From: Longimicrobiales bacterium
Lineage (GTDB): Bacteria; Gemmatimonadota; Gemmatimonadetes; Longimicrobiales; Gaopeijiaceae
Length of the DNA stretch: 64,000 bases
Reading direction: 5' to 3'
Assembly: GCA_965198065.1 (NCBI GenBank)
Contig: CBDAON010000004.1
Coordinates: forward strand, 512,001 to 576,000
The notes under the pieces are model-generated. The model searched no databases. It was not told the origin of the DNA and worked only from the letters and a program-made list of their open reading frames with translations. Positions within the stretch are counted from its first letter, which is position 1. Every line of letters starts with the position of its first letter. This document shows positions 55,070 through 63,998 of the stretch, piece after piece. The position numbers and the translations under genes were made by a program.

Positions 55070-55573
55070 CTACTCCAGGGTCCCCACGTCCTCGGGGGAA
55101 AGGCGGTGGTACTCGAGGAGCACGCGGTCGAGCAACCCCTCCGTCATGCGCAGCTCGAGCGCGGCCCGGTCGCCCTCCTCTCCGGGGCCACCCGCGGCGT
55201 CGCGCCGGAGCGCGAGGATGCGATCCGAGAGGAAGGCCAGGAAGTCCTCGACCACCTCCGGCCGCGGCTCCGGCTCCTCGGTTGAGCCTTCCAAGACCTC
55301 GGTGAGCAGGAGCCCGCGCACGAGGGCCAGGACCCCCGGGAAGGTCAGCTCCGGGAGCGGCCCCCCCTCCATGCGCTCCTCTTCGGTGACGTTCTCCCAT
55401 TCCAGATCGTTCCAGTAGAGCTCCTGGAGCTCCTCCAGAAGATGACGTCGTCCCTCCACGGGAAGGGCGGCCCCCACAGTTCCGCCGGGCACACGCAGCG
55501 GCCGGCCTATCGCCTCCTGGAGCAGCCGCCGGCGCTCCTCGATGAGCTGGGTCGTCTGTTTCGAGCTGGGCAT
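55070..55573 (-). CDS. Hypothetical acidic protein
   Basis: 167-aa ORF with core-like codon usage, co-oriented with the operon. Confidence 0.65.
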   Translation of the reverse strand: MPSSKQTTQLIEERRRLLQEAIGRPLRVPGGTVGAALPVEGRRHLLEELQELYWNDLEWENVTEEERMEGGPLPELTFPGVLALVRGLLLTEVLEGSTEEPEPRPEVVEDFLAFLSDRILALRRDAAGGPGEEGDRAALELRMTEGLLDRVLLEYHRLSPEDVGTLE

Positions 55574-55789
55574 GGGAAGTCCAACTTACGGAGGCGTCCT
55601 TCCGCGGCCAAGGAAGGTCTAGCCTTCCGAGTCAGGCCTTCTAGCCGTCTTCCTCCTCAGCTTCAAGCGTTACGTACACGGGGATTCGTGCGACGGTGCT
55701 CCAACCTCCACTGGGATCTCGATAGGGGGAGCCCCTCCGGAAGGAGGATCCCATCTCGTAAAGCCTTGCTTTTGGGGGCTTTCCAGAAA

Positions 55790-55827
55790 TGCCGGAGGAG
55801 GGACTCGAACCCCCGACACGCGGATTA
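55790..55827 (-). tRNA. 3' half of a tRNA (Met-like, Phe possible), probable att site of the right-hand island
   Basis: TAA TCCGC GTGTC GGGGG TTCGAGT CCCTC CTCCGGC A. No D-arm or 5' acceptor strand upstream. Confidence 0.78.
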
Positions 55828-56307
55828 GATTGCGAAACCACGACTTACCTTGTGAGTGCTCCTGTTCGGCCACCGAATCTCCTGCAATCACTTAGAGCGT
55901 TGTTGCGCACTGGAACTTCCGCCGCTCTACGCCTTGTTCTGGAACGTCAGTGAACAAAGTCTGACACGCCACCTCGCCGTCGCCGATCCCACGTTCGAGG
56001 CGGTAGAGGCCCTCAAGGATAGCGTACAGGCGGGTGATGGGGTCGGCGTCTTCTCGCGACAACGTCCCGGTGGGGACGGCTGCCTCGCGGAGCCAGAGCA
56101 GGAGGCCATCCCAGGCCTCGAAAAAGTGGACACCTAGGTCACGCGGCCTGACGTAGTCGCTCCTCATAGGCGATCGGACTCAGATACCCGAGGGTCGAGT
56201 GCCGTCGCTCCCGATTGCACCAACCCATCGATGTACTCTACGAGAGCTCGGGTAAGCCCTCCGCGGGTGGGCCAATACGAGGCTGATCTTCGACATATTT
56301 GAGGCAA

Positions 56308-56336
56308 TTGACGCGAACGCTTGTTGCCCTCATGAT
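56308..56336 (+). promoter_or_regulatory. Sigma70-type promoter of the uORF/efflux operon
   Basis: TTGACG-17 nt-CATGAT. The ATG at 56344 lies about 8 nt downstream, suggesting a leaderless transcript. Confidence 0.55.
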
Positions 56337-56343
56337 GCATCTT

Positions 56344-56691
56344 ATGTGGTTCTCACGACAGTTCCGTTCCGTGACGGCATCGTTTCTGATCGCGTTGGTC
56401 TGCGCGCTCTCCACCGGTGTGCCCTCGCATCATCATGAGCGGTCCGATGACTCGCACGGCACAGTTCATGTTATCGGCCCTGACCATCACTCGCACGGCA
56501 CCATCCTCGTCGAGCAGGCGGAACGGGTTTCGTCCAGCCCGCCCCAACTCATCGCGGTGGTGGCATCCGGTTCGGAACCAATACCTGCAGCGGTATCCAG
56601 CGTAGTCCAGCAACGCCGGGAGCCAATCCGCCCCAGGGAACGGGCCCCACCGCCCAACAACGCCCCCCGCGCCCCGCCGCACCTCTCCTGA
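56344..56691 (+). CDS. His-rich, signal/TM-bearing upstream peptide with two C-terminal RAPP motifs (DUF2946/CruR-like)
   Basis: FLIALVCALSTG, SHHH...SHG..H...DHHSHG, RERAPPPNNAPRAPPHLS*. Confidence 0.75.
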   Translation: MWFSRQFRSVTASFLIALVCALSTGVPSHHHERSDDSHGTVHVIGPDHHSHGTILVEQAERVSSSPPQLIAVVASGSEPIPAAVSSVVQQRREPIRPRERAPPPNNAPRAPPHLS

Positions 56692-56740
56692 CCGAACGGC
56701 CGGCCCGAGCCAGGCCGGCGCGTCTCCACACATCTGGACT

Positions 56741-56771
56741 CCTCGCAGCCCCTCCTTCGGGGGGTGCGAGG
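56741..56771 (+). promoter_or_regulatory. GC-rich hairpin with a C(UUCG)G loop between the uORF and the tolC-like RBS
   Basis: CCTCGCA-GCCCCTCC-TTCG-GGGGG-TGCGAGG, with no U-tract. AGGAG follows. Confidence 0.5.
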
Positions 56772-56789
56772 TCACAGGAGAAGGGATAG

Positions 56790-58086
56790 GTGAATACCAA
56801 AACGAACGCCACGATCTTAGTCGGAGCCTTGCTCCTCGGTCTCATGATCTTTCCCCGATCTGTGATTGCCCAAGTTGCGGCAGAAGGTGCCGTCAACCAA
56901 CAGAACCAGTTTCGACGGATCACTTTCGATGAGGTGCTTGGGCTGCTGGGGGCAAACCTGGGACTCCGCATAGCACGGTTGGAGGCCGAGGCGATAGCTC
57001 GCCAATCAAAAGCCTACCCTAACCCAGCATTCACAGCGAGCCATGAGACCCTCGATGCGACCGGCGAGTTGTCCGAGAGTTACCTCACCCTATCGCAGCG
57101 GTTGGAGTGGCCGGGAAGCCGTAGTGCGCGCCAGACCATGGCGAGCGAGAACGCATTAGCAGCGTCGACTCGCGTGGCAGCCGATAGCGCTCTTTTGGGA
57201 TTTCGTGTGAAGCGCGCGTACGTCGAGGCGGCGCGGGCCGAAACGTACACCGACATTCTTGAGCGCGTGGCAACGGTCTTCCGACAAGCTGTAGAAAGGG
57301 CAGGGGAGCGATACGATGAAGGTGACGTATCGCTCTACGATCTCCGCCGCATTGAGGTCGAACGGGTGCGCTACGAGGCCTCCCTTGCTGATGCTCTCCT
57401 CGATCTCAGTTCGGCGCGCCGCGAGTTGGCTCTCCTGGTTGCCCCTGAAACGGGTGACCTCCAGCTCGCGCCCGCCGCTGCCCCTGTGGGCATGCCCCCT
57501 TTCTTGGATCTAGATCAGCTGCAGGTATTGGCAGTTAGCCGGCGTCCAGAGATCGCAGCTGTGCAAGCGGACATTAGGTCCGCGCAGGCCGAGGTCAGGG
57601 GGCTCCGGGCTCAACGCATTCCCGATCTGACGGCGACCGGCGGATTCAGGCGTCAGTCCGATGGGTTCAACGGGCTGTTCCTCGGGATGTCGGTCCCGCT
57701 TCCTCTCTGGAATCGTTCTGCGGACGCCATCGAAGCTGCAGACGCCCGAGTCACAGGAGACCAGACGCTTCTAGCCCTCACGCGGCGGGAGATTGAGAAC
57801 GATGCGTGGAGCGCCCTGGACGCGTACCGCTCCCAGGTTCAGCGGGCGGAGCTTATTTCGGGTGAGGGCGGAGCCCAGACGACCGATCTCTTGGATGTCG
57901 CTCAGGTCGCGTACGATGCGGGTGAGATGGAGTTGATCGAGCTCCTGGAATGCGGCCGAGGCCTTTCGTGATGCAGAGACAGCAACTATTCGCATTCGAT
58001 CCGATGTATGGATCAGCTACTACGATCTCGAGCGAGCCGTTGGTGGATCCGGCGATCTCTCGGGGCAAGGGGAGGACGACGAATGA
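56790..58086 (+). CDS. TolC/CzcC outer-membrane factor (apparent frameshift ~57950)
   Basis: AYPNP, LSQRLEWPG, RIPDLT, SVPLPLWNR, AYDAGE. An alternate frame continues AAEAF...DLERAVGG. Confidence 0.85.
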
Positions 58087-59615
58087 TTGAGCGTAAGAGG
58101 CGCACGAAAGCTGGACTGCGCGGTGCGACGAGCCGGGTGGTCCTGACTTTGTTCGTAGGTGTAGCCCCACTCGCAAGCGTGGGTTGTGAGCAGGAGCCGG
58201 CGGCGGAGACTCTCGAGCCCGGAATCGGCTCGGTCGTCGTGAGTCAGTGGAATGAATCCACGGAGCTCTTCCTCGAGTACCCGCACCTTGTCGCAGGGCA
58301 GCCTACGGGGAATTGGGCGATCCACCTGACGAGCATGGAGACCTTCGAGCCGATCCGCTCTGGGAGTCTCGTTGTCAACTTCCTCTCGGCCGAGTCGGTC
58401 CAAGCGTCGTTCCCGATTGAGGGCGTGGCGCGGGACGGAATCTTCCTCCTGGATCCGGTCGTTGCAACGCCCGGCCATTACCGCGTGGAGCTTGCTCTGG
58501 AGAGTCCGCAGGCGCGGAGCACGCATGTCCTTCCCGACGTCCAGGTATTTGCGAGCGAATCGGACGCGCCTCTGGCGGAAGAGGAGGAGGAAGGGGGAGG
58601 TATCGCCTTCCTAAAGGAACAACAGTGGCAGATGCCGTGGGCGGTCACGCCAGCCGCTACGGGCTCGATCCTCGGGACCATCGCGGTGCCGGGCGAGGTC
58701 GTCGCCCCGGACGGCGCTCTGGTGCAAGTCGGGGCGCCTGTGGCCGGGATTGCGCTGGAAGAGTCCAACCGGACCGCTCCTTCTGTCGGACAGAACGTCA
58801 CCAGGGGACAGGTCCTCGCGGTGCTCGCGCCGACCGCGCAGGAGGGAGGGTTCGCACGGACGGTCGCGACCGTTCAACGGCTCGAAAGAGAGGTGCAGCG
58901 GGCCGAGCAGCTGGTTGAGGCTGGCGCAATTCCGCGGCGACGGCTCGAGGAGGCACGTTACGATCTCGAGGTTGCCAGGGCTGAGGCGGAAGCTATGGGC
59001 GCCTCGGCTTCCGATGGCCCTTCGCGGCTTCAACTCACCTCGCCGATGACCGGTGTGGTAGCGACCCGCAGCTTCATTCCGGGAGGGCGAGTCGAGGCAG
59101 GCGAACCGCTGTTCACGATCGTCGACTCGGGGGCGGCTTGGCTCCGCCTAGCCGTTCCGGCCGAGATTGTGTCGTCTGTACTCGAGGGCGCCTCGGGAAG
59201 GTACCGTCTCGAAGGGTCCGAGGAGGTACGTGAGACGGGACGCCTCGTGTCGATCGGTAGGATCATGGATTCGCAGACGCGCACGGTTCCAGTCGTTTTC
59301 GACGTGTCAGCGACGAGTGACCGGTTCTTTTATGGACAACTAGCGGAAGGCTTCGTTCCTCTAGGCGGGGAAGCTTCCGGAATCGTCATTCCAAACGAGG
59401 CGATCATCGACGACAACGGTACGGACGTAGCCTATGTCCAAACTGGGGGCGAGACCTTCGAGCGCCGGATCCTCGCGCTCGGCCCCACGGACGGAACTCA
59501 CACGTTGGTGCAGGCAGGGATCACTCCGGGAGAACTGATCGTTGTGAAAGGCGCCTATCAGGTCCGGCTCGCCTCGATGTCCGGCAGTGAATTCGCCGGT
59601 GCCCATGCCCATTGA
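58083..59615 (+). CDS. RND periplasmic adaptor (CzcB/CusB-like)
   Basis: TELFLEYP, FLKEQQW, SPMTGVV, GETFERR, C-terminal AHAH. Confidence 0.9.
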   Translation: MIERKRRTKAGLRGATSRVVLTLFVGVAPLASVGCEQEPAAETLEPGIGSVVVSQWNESTELFLEYPHLVAGQPTGNWAIHLTSMETFEPIRSGSLVVNFLSAESVQASFPIEGVARDGIFLLDPVVATPGHYRVELALESPQARSTHVLPDVQVFASESDAPLAEEEEEGGGIAFLKEQQWQMPWAVTPAATGSILGTIAVPGEVVAPDGALVQVGAPVAGIALEESNRTAPSVGQNVTRGQVLAVLAPTAQEGGFARTVATVQRLEREVQRAEQLVEAGAIPRRRLEEARYDLEVARAEAEAMGASASDGPSRLQLTSPMTGVVATRSFIPGGRVEAGEPLFTIVDSGAAWLRLAVPAEIVSSVLEGASGRYRLEGSEEVRETGRLVSIGRIMDSQTRTVPVVFDVSATSDRFFYGQLAEGFVPLGGEASGIVIPNEAIIDDNGTDVAYVQTGGETFERRILALGPTDGTHTLVQAGITPGELIVVKGAYQVRLASMSGSEFAGAHAH

Positions 59616-59625
59616 GAGGCCGACC

Positions 59626-62600
59626 ATGATCCCAGGAATAATCGGCTGGTCCATTCGGAATCGATTCTTGGTTCTAGCTGCGGCCAGCCTACTGCTGGTT
59701 TCTGGGATAATAACGGCACTTAGAATGCCGGTGGATGTGTTCCCGGACCTAACGGCACCCACGGTGACCGTCTTGACCGAAGCCCACGGGATGGCTCCTG
59801 AAGAGGTGGAAACTCTGGTCACTTTCCCAATCGAAACCTCCGTTAACGGTGCAACGGGCGTTCGGCGGGTCCGTTCGTCCACCGCCCAAGGAATCAGCAT
59901 CGTATGGGTCGAATTTGAGTGGGGAACCGACATCTTCCAGGCCCGGCAGATTGTGGCTGAAAGGCTTCAACTCGTGGGTCAGTCGCTCCCCGTCGGTGTG
60001 CTCCCGCCAGCCCTCGCCCCCATCTCGTCGATCATGGGTGAGATTATGCTGATCGCGGTTACGGCAGATGAGTCCACGTCCCTCATGGAAGCAAGAACAT
60101 TTGCGGACTGGGTCGTTCGTCCCCGACTTCTTGCGGTCCCTGGTGTGTCCCAGGTGATTCCGCTCGGAGGGGAGGTTCGACAGTACCAGATTCTGGTGGA
60201 TCCGACGCGGCTTGCAGCTTACGGGGTGACGCTCGATGAGGTGATGAGGGCCGCGGAAGAGTCCAACGTGAACGCTTCGGGTGGCGTGTTCATGGCCGGA
60301 GGTCAGGAGTACCTGATCCGTGGGACTGGGCGTGTGGAGAAGCTGGATGACATCGCGGGAACGGTGGTCGCCGTACGAGACGGGACTCCGGTCCTGATCG
60401 GGAATGTAGCAGACACCCGCATAGGGCCTGCTACTCAATTGGGCAGAGGATCTGCGAACGCCGAGGCTGCGGTGGTCCTATCCATTCAGAAGCAACCGAA
60501 TACCAACACTTTGGAGCTCACGGACCGCATCGACGAGTCCCTCACGGATATCGAGGAGGGTCTTCCCCCGGGTCTCCAGATTAACCGCGGAATCTTCCGA
60601 CAGGGAAACTTCATAGAATTGGCAGTCGACAACGTGCTGGAGGCCCTGAGAGATGGGGCGGTTCTCGTCGTTCTGATCTTGTTCCTCTTTCTCTGGAGCG
60701 GACGCAGCACGTTCATTTCGGCTTTGGCCATCCCCCTCTCCTTCGCGACTGCGATCTTTGCGCTGCGCCTTTCAGGCATCACGATAAACACGATGACGCT
60801 AGGCGGGATGGCGATCGCGATCGGCGCCCTGGTCGATGATGCGGTGATCGGCGTAGAGAACGTGTTCCGAAGGCTTCGCGAAAACCGTGCGCTTCCGCCC
60901 GAAGAAGCGAAACCTTCCCTTGAGGTGGTAAGCTTTGCGTCGTCGGAGATCGGACCAAGCATCGTGAGCGCCAGCTTCATTATTAGTGTCGTCTTCGTCC
61001 CCCTCTTCTTTCTGAGCGGAATCGAGGGGCGGATGCTTGTGCCTCTTGGCTTCTCCTACATCGTGGCAATCATGGCCTCGCTCGTCGTCGCTCTCACGGT
61101 TACGCCCGCACTGGCTGCTATTCTCTTGCCGGGCTCTCCGGAGGTCGAGCGCGAGCGAGAGAGTTGGGTCAGCCGGACCCTCAAGGCCGCATATGCGCGA
61201 ATTCTGGACCCCCTCCTCGATCGCCTAATCCCGGTGCTTCTGGGTACGACCGGGCTCGTGGCTGCCGCGCTCGTGATGGTCGGGTTCATGGGACGGGACT
61301 TCCTCCCTGAGTTTAGAGAGGGGACCCTCGTCATCCAGGCGATAACGCTGCCAGGAACGTCGCTGGATGAATCCGATGCCCTAGGCCGGAGGATAGAAGA
61401 AATTCTGCTGAGCCATCCCGCTGTGGAGGAGACGGGACGCCGCACCGGGCGAGCAGAGCTGGACGAACACGCGCAAGGAACCAATGCAGCTGAAATCGAT
61501 GTGCGACTGAACCTGGAAGGGTACGACTACGACGTTGTCCTTGCCGAGCTAAGAGAGGCGGTGGCCATGGTTCCGGGTACGGAAGTCACGATCGGCCAGC
61601 CTATCCGACACCGCATAGACCACATGCTCTCCGGGACACGGGCAAGTATCGCGATCAATATCTTTGGCCCGGAACTTCGGGAGCTGCGCAGAATCGGCCG
61701 TGAGGTAGAATCCGTTGCCGCGAGCGTGCCCGGAACAGCTGATGTTGCAATGGAGCCCCAAGCAGATGTCCCGCAGGTCCGCGTCATAATGAACCGCGCG
61801 GCAATGGCCCGCTACGGCATGACTCCAGGGCGTCTCGGCGAAGCCATCGATGTAGCCTTCGCCGGAGAAGCGGTCTCGCGTGTGCTGGAGGGACAGCAGA
61901 GCTTCGATATCCTGGTGCGCTTCGCCGAGCCGTACCGCGGTTCGATCGAGAACATTGCGAACTCTCGGGTCAATACCCCGTCTGGCGCCCAGGTCCCTCT
62001 GACTTCCCTGGCCACGATCCGGCGCGACATGGGACCCAACCAGATCTCTCGGGAGAACGTGCAGCGAAAGATCGTCGTACAGTCGAACGTTGCTGGTCGG
62101 GATGTGGGGAGTGTGGTAGAAGAACTGCGCGAGCGGATCTCTCAAGAGGTGAGCCTTTCCCAGGACTATTACATCGAGTATGGGGGCCAGTTCGAGTCTG
62201 CGGAGTCGGCTTCCCGGACCATCGGCGGGCTTTCCCTGCTGGCGGTTGCGCTGATGTTTCTCCTCCTCTTCATGGAGTTCCAGTCGGTCCGTCAGGCAAT
62301 TCTAATCATGGTCAATCTTCCTTTGGCCCTCGTCGGTGGCGTCTTTGCGGTGATGTTGACAGGGGGAATACTCAACGTCGCCACCATGGTCGGCTTCATC
62401 ACCTTGTTCGGAATCGCCGTGCGGAACGGGATTCTTCTGGTGTCGCACTACAATCACCTGCTCGGAGAAGGCTTCTCGCTTCGTGAGGCGGTATGGAAGG
62501 GTTCTATGGAGAGGCTCAATCCGATAGCCATGACGGCACTTACGACAGGGCTTGCTCTCGTTCCGCTGGCTCTCGCAGGAGGCGATGCGGGTAACGAGAT

Positions 62601-62721
62601 CCAGAGTCCCTTGGCGATTGTCGTCCTGGGGGGACTACTCACCGCTCTCGTGCTCAACATGATCGTGGTGCCGGCGCTGTTCTTGAGGTTTGGGATTCCG
62701 CGTCCCGTGGTAGCTCTGTAA
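59626..62721 (+). CDS. Heavy-metal efflux RND permease (CusA/CzcA family)
   Basis: VDVFPDL, PEEVETLVTFPIE, GALVDDAVIGVEN, GRAELDEH, ERLNPIAMT. Confidence 0.95.
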   Translation: MIPGIIGWSIRNRFLVLAAASLLLVSGIITALRMPVDVFPDLTAPTVTVLTEAHGMAPEEVETLVTFPIETSVNGATGVRRVRSSTAQGISIVWVEFEWGTDIFQARQIVAERLQLVGQSLPVGVLPPALAPISSIMGEIMLIAVTADESTSLMEARTFADWVVRPRLLAVPGVSQVIPLGGEVRQYQILVDPTRLAAYGVTLDEVMRAAEESNVNASGGVFMAGGQEYLIRGTGRVEKLDDIAGTVVAVRDGTPVLIGNVADTRIGPATQLGRGSANAEAAVVLSIQKQPNTNTLELTDRIDESLTDIEEGLPPGLQINRGIFRQGNFIELAVDNVLEALRDGAVLVVLILFLFLWSGRSTFISALAIPLSFATAIFALRLSGITINTMTLGGMAIAIGALVDDAVIGVENVFRRLRENRALPPEEAKPSLEVVSFASSEIGPSIVSASFIISVVFVPLFFLSGIEGRMLVPLGFSYIVAIMASLVVALTVTPALAAILLPGSPEVERERESWVSRTLKAAYARILDPLLDRLIPVLLGTTGLVAAALVMVGFMGRDFLPEFREGTLVIQAITLPGTSLDESDALGRRIEEILLSHPAVEETGRRTGRAELDEHAQGTNAAEIDVRLNLEGYDYDVVLAELREAVAMVPGTEVTIGQPIRHRIDHMLSGTRASIAINIFGPELRELRRIGREVESVAASVPGTADVAMEPQADVPQVRVIMNRAAMARYGMTPGRLGEAIDVAFAGEAVSRVLEGQQSFDILVRFAEPYRGSIENIANSRVNTPSGAQVPLTSLATIRRDMGPNQISRENVQRKIVVQSNVAGRDVGSVVEELRERISQEVSLSQDYYIEYGGQFESAESASRTIGGLSLLAVALMFLLLFMEFQSVRQAILIMVNLPLALVGGVFAVMLTGGILNVATMVGFITLFGIAVRNGILLVSHYNHLLGEGFSLREAVWKGSMERLNPIAMTALTTGLALVPLALAGGDAGNEIQSPLAIVVLGGLLTALVLNMIVVPALFLRFGIPRPVVAL

Positions 62722-62895: not shown

Positions 62896-63330
62896 CTAGT
62901 TGTTCGGGGCGCCGGTGTTGATCCAGTTCCTGATGTTCGTCAGGTCGATGTTGTCCAGAAAGGAGCCGCGCAGTGGCATCCGCGCTCCGACCCTCTGGCG
63001 GCCTTCCAGCTTAATCACCAGGTAGCTGTTTGTGGCATCGTTGGGCGTAACCCTGTTGAAGTTCGGCTCGGACATCGACGGGACTCCGACGAGGACGCCA
63101 TAGTTCGCGTCCCCGTTGCTTCCCAGTATCAATCCCCCCGCTGCGCTTCCGTGGCAGCTCGCGGCCCTGCAGCCCTTCCGGGTGAAGATCTCTTGGACAT
63201 CGGCGGCGAAGGACGGGTTCGACTTGATCTCGCGGGTGTCGCCCGGATCGGACGGGCTGCCGCTCCCTCCGCACGCTGCGAGGAAGGTGGCCACGACGGT
63301 CGCGGCCAGGAACGAACGAAGCAGAGGCAT
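62896..63330 (-). CDS. Lipoprotein with an atypical CxxxxCH heme-like motif
   Basis: LAAC lipobox, VQEIF..GCRAASCH, SYLVIKLEG, RMP, WINTGA. Confidence 0.7.
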   Translation of the reverse strand: MPLLRSFLAATVVATFLAACGGSGSPSDPGDTREIKSNPSFAADVQEIFTRKGCRAASCHGSAAGGLILGSNGDANYGVLVGVPSMSEPNFNRVTPNDATNSYLVIKLEGRQRVGARMPLRGSFLDNIDLTNIRNWINTGAPNN

Positions 63331-63471
63331 GATTGCACCCTTTGGCGCGCGTCGGGGGACGAGGGGCGATCCCTGGTTCACGGTGTGTGGTGGACGAAGT
63401 ACTTACGCAGCAATACTATACCGGAATAGACCAGACTCTTCCCTAGACTTGTAGTCCCCCTCATAATCGAA

Positions 63472-63656: not shown

Positions 63657-63998
63657 TCAGGGCCCGGAGGCGGACAGCTCGACGAGGAAGGCGGTCACGG
63701 CCCGTGCCTCGGACCTCGTAAGATGAGCACGACTTCGTACGTGCGCGACCAGGACCGGCCACTGCTCCGCGGTGAACTCGCTCGCGGGCCTGGCATTGTG
63801 GCACCGGTCGCACGTAGCGAGCCAGATTCGCGCCCCCATCTGCGCGATCTCCGAAGTCGCCATCGGCTGCTCCTGGACGGCGGCGCTCGCGCATCCCCCC
63901 AACAGTGGCCCTACGGAGAGAGCGGTCGCCAGGATGCCGAGGAAGCGGCGCCGGGATCGCGCGCGCGGGGGCTGGCGGGGAGCCGACCGAGGATCCAT
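63657..63998 (-). CDS. Small c-type cytochrome lipoprotein
   Basis: LGGC lipobox, CDRCH, WPVLVAHVR. Start at the window edge is uncertain. Confidence 0.75.
   Translation of the reverse strand: MDPRSAPRQPPRARSRRRFLGILATALSVGPLLGGCASAAVQEQPMATSEIAQMGARIWLATCDRCHNARPASEFTAEQWPVLVAHVRSRAHLTRSEARAVTAFLVELSASGP

Follow-up and report, generated by a model that had tools for sequence, protein, structure and literature searches.

The DNA analysed here, referred to below as the window, is a stretch of 64,000 nucleotides from a Longimicrobiales bacterium of the phylum Gemmatimonadota (GenBank assembly GCA_965198065.1, contig CBDAON010000004.1, positions 512,001 to 576,000 of the forward strand), and positions are counted from its first letter. 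On the forward strand at 56344-56691, directly 5' of a set of heavy-metal efflux genes, lies an open reading frame (ORF) of 115 amino acids, hereafter the leader, which belongs to an unnamed family of histidine-only proteins with a double RxPP motif. Translation of the window bears out the features that had first drawn attention to it, namely a hydrophobic N-terminus, the histidine pattern SHHH..SHG..H..DHHSHG and a C-terminus reading RERAPPPNNAPRAPPHLS before the stop, with two RAPP motifs of which the second stands 3 codons 5' of the stop codon. The anticipated TolC-MFP-CusA/CzcA operon follows on the same strand and comprises a TolC/CzcC-type outer-membrane efflux protein (OEP) recognized by family match (56790-57971), a HlyD-type periplasmic adaptor or membrane fusion protein (58083-59615) whose start overlaps the OEP stop position of homologues (ATGA), and an HME-RND pump of the CusA/CzcA family (59626-62721) that scores 826.5 bits against the TIGR00914 cut-off of 701.45 and carries the motifs HAQGTN and HRIDH.

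The leader begins with a basic N-region and a hydrophobic helix at residues 2-23 (56347-56412), followed by a conserved TG-x-P. AlphaFold predicts this helix with a local confidence (pLDDT) of about 89-95 and its hydropathy is 2.0-2.2, making it a likely Sec signal peptide or membrane anchor. Two histidine clusters follow, the first at H29-H31 (56428-56436), in which H29 and H31 are invariant in 14 sequences, and the second at H48 H49 S50 H51 (56485-56496), in which H51 is retained in at least 90% of 122 sequences. A linker of variable sequence (56527-56631), predicted to be unstructured in two AlphaFold models, leads to the first RAPP, R100-P103 (56641-56652), and to the second, R109-P112 (56668-56679), of which R109, P111, and P112 are invariant in 122 sequences and which is predicted to be the likely main stall site. 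From His cluster 2 the distance to the arginine is 49 residues for the first RAPP and about 57-58 for the second. With either 14 or 122 aligned sequences, AlphaFold predicted the N-terminal helix and no other fold (predicted TM-scores, pTM, of 0.23 and 0.32).

In this 67%-GC genome 111 of 50,100 stop-to-stop frames carry a RAPP no more than 6 amino acids from a stop, and the case for the leader therefore rests on conservation. A single-sequence search yielded 9 homologues and a 14-sequence profile yielded 196 matches, of which the best 120 were taken; clustering at 50% left 91 representatives. Motifs were counted in 200 retrieved proteins of fewer than 400 amino acids, after exclusion of two long spurious matches, and the family thus comprises at least 200 proteins. 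The last motif is RAPP in 190/200, although these counts are biased towards RAPP because the profile itself includes that motif. A first R-x-P-P is present in 193/200, always 8-9 residues before the last (193/193), as RAPP (152), RDPP (14), RPPP (11), RSPP (11), RGPP (4), or RHPP (1), with 7 proteins having none. When metagenome loci were instead retrieved by patterns of histidines only (23 loci, one of them truncated and about 18 distinct), all 22 complete ones ended in RAPP. CxxC occurs in 0/200, in agreement with the original description of a His-type variant lacking that motif. The interval from His cluster 2 to the first arginine is 48-52 residues in 177 of the 185 proteins measured, and 159/198 have a 3-residue tail after the last motif. 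Over 12 pairs the ratio of nonsynonymous to synonymous substitution rates (dN/dS) is 0.34 for the whole ORF, and by region it is 0.41 in the signal, 0.17 in the His region, 0.68 in the linker, and 0.11 in the arrest region; taken together with the fixed spacing, the linker value indicates that its length is kept and its sequence is not. By these comparisons of sequence, the leader gene is real and under purifying selection. Its closest loci, like the names of the matching proteins, point to Gemmatimonadota, mostly Longimicrobiales. No Pfam or NCBIfam family could be assigned to it, the ESM Atlas returned only unnamed clusters plus one DUF6769 cluster at 0.94, and a tblastn search of plasmids found no real homologue. 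The variants at the first RxPP suggest that it is itself a pause site, since most of them (RAPP, RGPP, RDPP, RSPP) are reported to be arrest-competent or, as for RDPP and RSPP (PMC12992588), partly permissive; alternatively, it could form part of one long arrest sequence.

A sigma70-type promoter at 56308-56336 (-35 box TTGACG, 17 nt, -10 box CATGAT) ends 7 nt before the leader ATG, where 0.1 such elements were expected in shuffled sequence, and its placement for a leaderless start, already proposed, recurs across the family. Among 41 distinct homologous loci, 32 had a start codon found by script and 9 were left unscored; a TTG-type -35 box together with a -10 box ending 4-9 nt before the start was present at 32/32 (TTGAC in 25), and a Shine-Dalgarno (SD) sequence before the leader start at 0/32. 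The loose form of this pattern matches 0.4% of random start codons. At the same 32 loci the 70 nt before the -10 box contained no other conserved element, and no shared operator was evident. This promoter layout predicts a leader transcript that is leaderless and constitutive. One stem resembling a terminator, at 56364, is what chance alone would produce (1.0 expected).

The neighbourhood survey that had been called for was run from the pump, blind to the leader, in 301 genomes of the class, and covered 78 of 82 RND matches, 4 near contig ends being omitted; 50 loci with an OEP gene and room upstream were scoreable. At 22 of these 50, from 20 genera, a His-rich leader ending in RAPP or RPPP precedes the OEP gene, and three of the 22 leaders resemble other His-rich leader types. 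Approached from the leader, 24 strong matches (E<=3e-8) were available, two of them at contig ends, and an OEP gene lies 3' of all 22 that have downstream DNA; this gene is always a metal-pump OEP and never sec or yidC. In the same survey, 24 of the 78 regions had no OEP match upstream of the adaptor, and in several related pump operons a CDF transporter gene stands first or is divergent. Different His-rich, RAPP-ended leaders that the family profile does not match stand before related pump operons at three loci (L080, L082, and L091), which suggests that this pump clade has leaders of more than one type. Four weak profile matches (L175, L176, L177, and L178) are His/Cys RAPP leaders before other exported proteins, one of them OEP-like, and by their sequences they would tie the leader family to a wider CutF-like class.

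Between the leader and the OEP gene lie 98 nt (96-192 nt at 31 loci), and the predicted structure of this RNA places the leader's own end opposite the OEP ribosome-binding site (RBS). In minimum free energy (MFE) and centroid folds, 56682-56690, which comprises the leader's last codons and its stop, pairs as an anti-SD stretch with the OEP SD region CAGGAGAAGG (56775-56784), a conserved block in 7/7 close loci. The pairing closes around one small and two larger hairpins, the latter being a GC-rich scaffold helix directly after the stop (56696-56723), with some compensatory changes, and a UUCG-capped scaffold helix (56741-56771) whose loop is not conserved. The UUCG hairpin had been singled out before and is indeed present ahead of the tolC RBS; the occluding role implied for it was rejected, as it is the last of the hairpins and stops 3 nt short of the SD, and the predicted occluding strand is the leader tail. 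Pairing of this tail with the SD region also appears in the consensus fold of each of three subgroups, one of which is the 7 close loci. No Rfam match was found in 56308-56790 at E<=1.

A stalled ribosome was modelled by masking the RNA to 16 nt past the codon for the first proline of a motif, held in the P site, 16 nt being the length of the ribosome footprint beyond the P-site codon. A ribosome stalled at the second RAPP is predicted to cover the anti-SD stretch, and masking to that motif lowered the RBS opening energy from 15.6 to 8.6 kcal/mol; none of 12 synonymous recodings, with a mean of 1.8, reached this drop of 7.0. The calculation was repeated at 31 loci, left from 33 after removal of 2 near-duplicates, with the start codon assigned manually at 3. 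Masking to the second motif gave a mean drop of 3.2 kcal/mol and masking to the first gave -0.3, and the second-motif drop exceeded 1 kcal/mol at 24/31. These folding models clearly predict an SD-occluding switch at this locus and make one plausible family-wide.

We consider it fairly probable that the leader is a cis-acting translational on-switch of the CutF type, in which metal bound by the histidines prolongs the stall at the last RAPP and thereby frees the tolC RBS. In this scheme, a constitutive leaderless transcript would begin at the leader ATG, as the promoter spacing predicts, and the N-terminal helix would take the nascent chain to Sec. His cluster 2 precedes the two arginines by about 49 and 57 residues, a distance at which the histidines would be coming out into the periplasm when the ribosome arrives at the motifs. 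The His clusters would then, by analogy with CutF, bind a divalent metal, Ni(II) being the likeliest, which would hold the arrest; without metal, export would pull the chain through and the arrest would end. Once the ribosome has gone, the leader tail is predicted to reach across the two scaffold hairpins and pair with the tolC SD. The anti-SD codons would be covered by a ribosome standing at the second RAPP but not by one at the first. The first motif is likely an earlier pause with the RBS still shut. An arrest prolonged by metal, as in CutF, has the polarity that an efflux pump needs. It is possible, though we hold it doubtful, that the leader is more specifically a two-step nickel sensor, in which the first RxPP would park the ribosome with the RBS shut during probing of the periplasm by the Cys-free His clusters, and Ni(II)-bound histidines would lock the arrest at the second RAPP, 8-9 codons on, and so free the RBS. 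With a constitutive leaderless transcript and no operator, the operon would then have no other metal control. If true, the two-step reading would be without precedent both for an arrest peptide that responds to Ni and for one whose tandem stall sites differ in output.

Several observations weigh against the CutF-type on-switch. Two of the 31 loci change in the wrong direction (drop < -1 kcal/mol), and the switch is modest across the family, its mean drop of 3.2 kcal/mol comparing with 1.7 for synonymous recodings (higher at 24/31) and with 2.1 for tails from other subgroups (higher at 22/31), at loci that are related and not independent. Compensatory changes are nearly lacking from the tail-SD helix in the consensus folds, and proline codons are C-rich regardless of any tail-SD pairing. 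The leader is absent at 28 of the 50 scoreable pump operons, in 5 genera, and is therefore dispensable for related pump operons; no replacement regulator was evident near the leader-less operons that were scanned. The genome has three Fur-family genes, which may allow control in trans. The metal itself is deduced from pump motifs that their source calls putative (PMC7060636), and CruR, with the same RAPP motif, responds to metal with the opposite polarity and by a Rho mechanism (PMC9426467). An either/or exchange of the leader for a transcription regulator was considered, and no such pattern was seen among the scanned leader-less loci, whose neighbours are mostly unrelated genes or CDF transporters, with one MerR-type helix-turn-helix protein and one kinase. 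Many related pump operons without a leader belong to one group of loci (L093-L138; genera g6, g54, g93, and g56).

Other explanations of the leader were weighed against the same evidence. Attenuation of the CruR type, in which the stalled ribosome mainly shields a C-rich Rho-loading site at the leader 3' end, would place control on transcription termination instead of SD access and would still let stalling switch the operon on, and a bubble of C over G at about 56614-56750 (C 0.54-0.56, G 0.24-0.26), a Rho gene in the genome, and the action of CruR through Rho all speak for it. However, the C skew at the leader end follows from its Pro, Arg, and Ala codons, rut sites lack structure whereas strong folding (z -2.9) is predicted for the short, 98-nt intergenic region, and the tail-SD helix is the MFE structure; we regard this alternative as unlikely. 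Less likely still is a role in trans, in which the leader protein would bind metal in the periplasm and serve the pump as a quencher or chaperone resembling CzcI, with RAPP only pacing its synthesis. CzcI is likewise His-rich, has 115 amino acids, occupies the same place before czcCBA and is reported to be a pump quencher, and the His clusters of the leader are conserved. Yet no folded domain is predicted past the signal helix, hhalign gave no similarity between the leader and CzcI (probability 0.2%), and the linker is conserved in length only while the arrest region is the most constrained part.

The signal helix combined with a C-terminal RAPP is also the architecture of a secretion monitor, and the downstream genes encode envelope proteins, so that the leader might match pump synthesis to Sec capacity in the manner of SecM or ApdP, its histidines having no sensing role. 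The strong selection on two His clusters and their constant spacing from the motifs argue against this, as does the absence of sec and yidC from the genes that follow strong matches, and we hold such a monitor to be very improbable. As for a chance ORF with chance motifs in GC-rich DNA, the frequency of RAPP near stops in this genome would favor it, but conservation, purifying selection, promoter spacing, and synteny together rule it out for practical purposes.

Nickel is our best guess for the metal that the CutF-type switch would serve, because the His motifs of the pump match the NieA type. The RND pump is 34% identical to CzcA and lacks the CusA methionine triad, which we take to be M573/M623/M672; the aligned residues are Gln, Ala, and His. 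Its HAQGTN and HRIDH compare with HAEGVH and HRLDH, the motifs of the putative nickel pump NieA (HME5) (PMC7060636). A pump on a plasmid of Cupriavidus sp. P-10 (L045) is 47% identical to the window RND and has exactly these HAEGVH and HRLDH motifs. Before that NieA-type operon, at L045:1604-1969, lies an unannotated His-rich, Cys-free leader ending in PPLRPPHAPA, which is probably nieI-like. Relative to three homologues, the tolC-like gene of the window has one extra base near 57949, and its stop at 57971 falls about 40 codons early, leaving 393 amino acids against about 435. Judged from the sequence, this frameshift probably impairs pump output in this strain. The extra base is present in contigs of runs X1 and X2, either of which may be the source of the window itself, and absent from those of runs X4 and X5; the X4 and X5 contigs carry 9 extra bases at 56980.

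The leader and its operon lie in an island of about 12.2 kb with lower GC and a metal-homeostasis content. Its left boundary is a 46-bp duplicate of the 3' part of tRNA-Met (55789-55834, minus strand; 95.7% match, ARAGORN), GC falls from about 0.70 to about 0.60 near 55500, and its far end is the intact tRNA-Met at G000:C4:580024-580097, beyond the window. Neither integrase nor regulator genes were recognized among the island ORFs scanned, in line with the earlier remark that no metal-responsive regulator is adjacent; in the genome, which is 88% complete, CsoR/RcnR and NikR were not found, and their absence is not thereby established. A 91-amino-acid ORF without a Pfam match sits at the left edge of the island (55892-56167, minus strand). 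Convergent on the pump operon are a lipoprotein-like ORF of 161 amino acids with CxxxxCH (62896-63381, minus strand) and a small c-type cytochrome with CxxCH and a weak DHC match (E 0.002; 63657-63998, minus strand). Just past the end of the window, in the same island, a leader-like ORF called at 153 amino acids (L155:9829-10290, minus strand) has a hydrophobic start, a His-rich stretch, CxxxC (CMGDC), and a C-terminal NAPP, with no Pfam match, and precedes a large unassigned ORF and a small c-type cytochrome; from its sequence it looks like a canonical CutF-like leader. Elsewhere in the genome there is a dense array of about 18 tRNA genes (G000:C4:1710874-1713237).

Within the literature surveyed, parts of which were available as excerpts, CruR and CutF are the only metal-sensing arrest leaders that we found characterized, and both rely on cysteine and copper, with opposite polarity. 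The present family, which lacks cysteines, relies on histidines with a ruler of fixed length, and is predicted to switch on a likely nickel pump, would bring divalent metals and the control of efflux within the range of sensing by ribosomes. With 200 natural variants, tandem motifs, and a defined tail-SD helix, a compact reporter test is feasible in Escherichia coli. What tempers the interest is that a survey of 2023 and a source table of 2025 already contain the general association of RAPP leaders with efflux operons, and the novelty first claimed for the leader was to that extent overstated, as CutF-like and RAPP-TolC leaders had been published; the family itself was not found described.

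The closest of the known systems is CutF of Rhodobacter capsulatus, in which copper-induced stalling opens the cutO RBS (bioRxiv 10.1101/2025.02.05.636593). Shared with it are small size, a C-terminal PP, and a detoxification gene downstream and, as predictions in the case of the leader, export, a metal-binding motif, and a stem over the downstream RBS. In the working definition of CutF-like proteins in PMC9973294, the leader, with its 115 amino acids and 98 nt, fits the limits on size (<150 amino acids), on the place of PP (at most 15 residues from the C-terminus), and on the next gene (same strand, no more than 1,000 nt away). The definition also asks for a Sec signal peptide predicted by SignalP, for which the leader has its basic N-region and the hydrophobic helix at residues 2-23 as a candidate. 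The differences are that the leader has no Cys motif, that its RxPP is in tandem, and that the predicted occluding strand lies in its own last codons. CutF-like proteins, published as 29 clusters, often precede RND OEP genes, and CzcI falls in their cluster 20; their His-only clusters 14 and 17 stand before HupE/UreJ (PMC9973294), whereas the leader stands before an efflux operon. The text of that survey does not name Gemmatimonadota in the portions available.

CruR (Bp2923) of Bordetella pertussis, a DUF2946/PF11162 protein with CXXC 45 residues before RAPP and Rho-dependent action (PMC9426467), has been demonstrated to arrest (PMC12992588). Like the leader, it has RAPP three residues from the C-terminus, an export signal, a fixed spacing between metal motif and RAPP, and the first place in its operon. 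In contrast, the leader has no CXXC and a spacing of 49/57 rather than 45, and where CruR precedes an importer that metal switches off, the leader precedes an exporter that metal should switch on; CruR also acts through Rho and does not need its own signal peptide. The proposed kinship with DUF2946 did not hold, the profile giving no leader match at E<=1 and, among 122 family members, only one at E 0.057 and none better. By analogy, then, the leader would work like CutF, and by Pfam and CXXC it is not a DUF2946 protein.

CzcI, and NieI of the operon nieIC-cep-nieBA, are, like the leader, His-rich exported proteins of about 115 amino acids at the head of an HME-RND operon (PMC10127602, PMC7060636), and NieA shares its His motifs with the window pump (PMC7060636). 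CzcI differs in having CxxC, in ending with RAPDRP without PP, and in being described as a trans-acting quencher; this was reported for czcICBA of Cupriavidus metallidurans, where czcI2 is leaderless (PMC10127602). No similarity was found by hhalign between the leader and either CzcI or the Cupriavidus plasmid leader. ApdA, ApdP, and SecM share a RAPP-type motif near the C-terminus and an export signal, and RAPP arrest has been shown for ApdA and ApdP, RAPP peptides stalling with the first proline in the P site (PMC10951233). They differ in preceding sec/yidC genes, and the portions of that source available describe no cluster in them that would bind metal.

The link between RAPP leaders and efflux is already published, in the 2023 survey (PMC9973294) and in the 2025 source table (PMC12992588). 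In the Fig. 4B source data of the latter, small ORFs with RAPP are enriched over those with AAPP at 530 versus 380 before TolC, 620 versus 148 before the RND adaptor, and 50 versus 7 before CusA/CzcA genes. Among 30 TolC rows examined, 6 are His-rich and Cys-free, and one row (MSR21050.1) has the motifs of the leader family. Its main text, as available, contains no occurrence of TolC or efflux, and the family, the tandem motif, the promoter, and the RNA switch were not found described or tested in the parts of PMC12992588 consulted. Nor was a description or test of the leader family or tandem motif found in the literature searched, with further overlap with the CutF-like and 2025 upstream ORF lists possible. 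New beside these systems are a family defined in Gemmatimonadota, a tandem motif whose two copies are predicted to differ in output, a leaderless-type promoter that is uniform across the scored loci, and an association with a pump of the NieA type.

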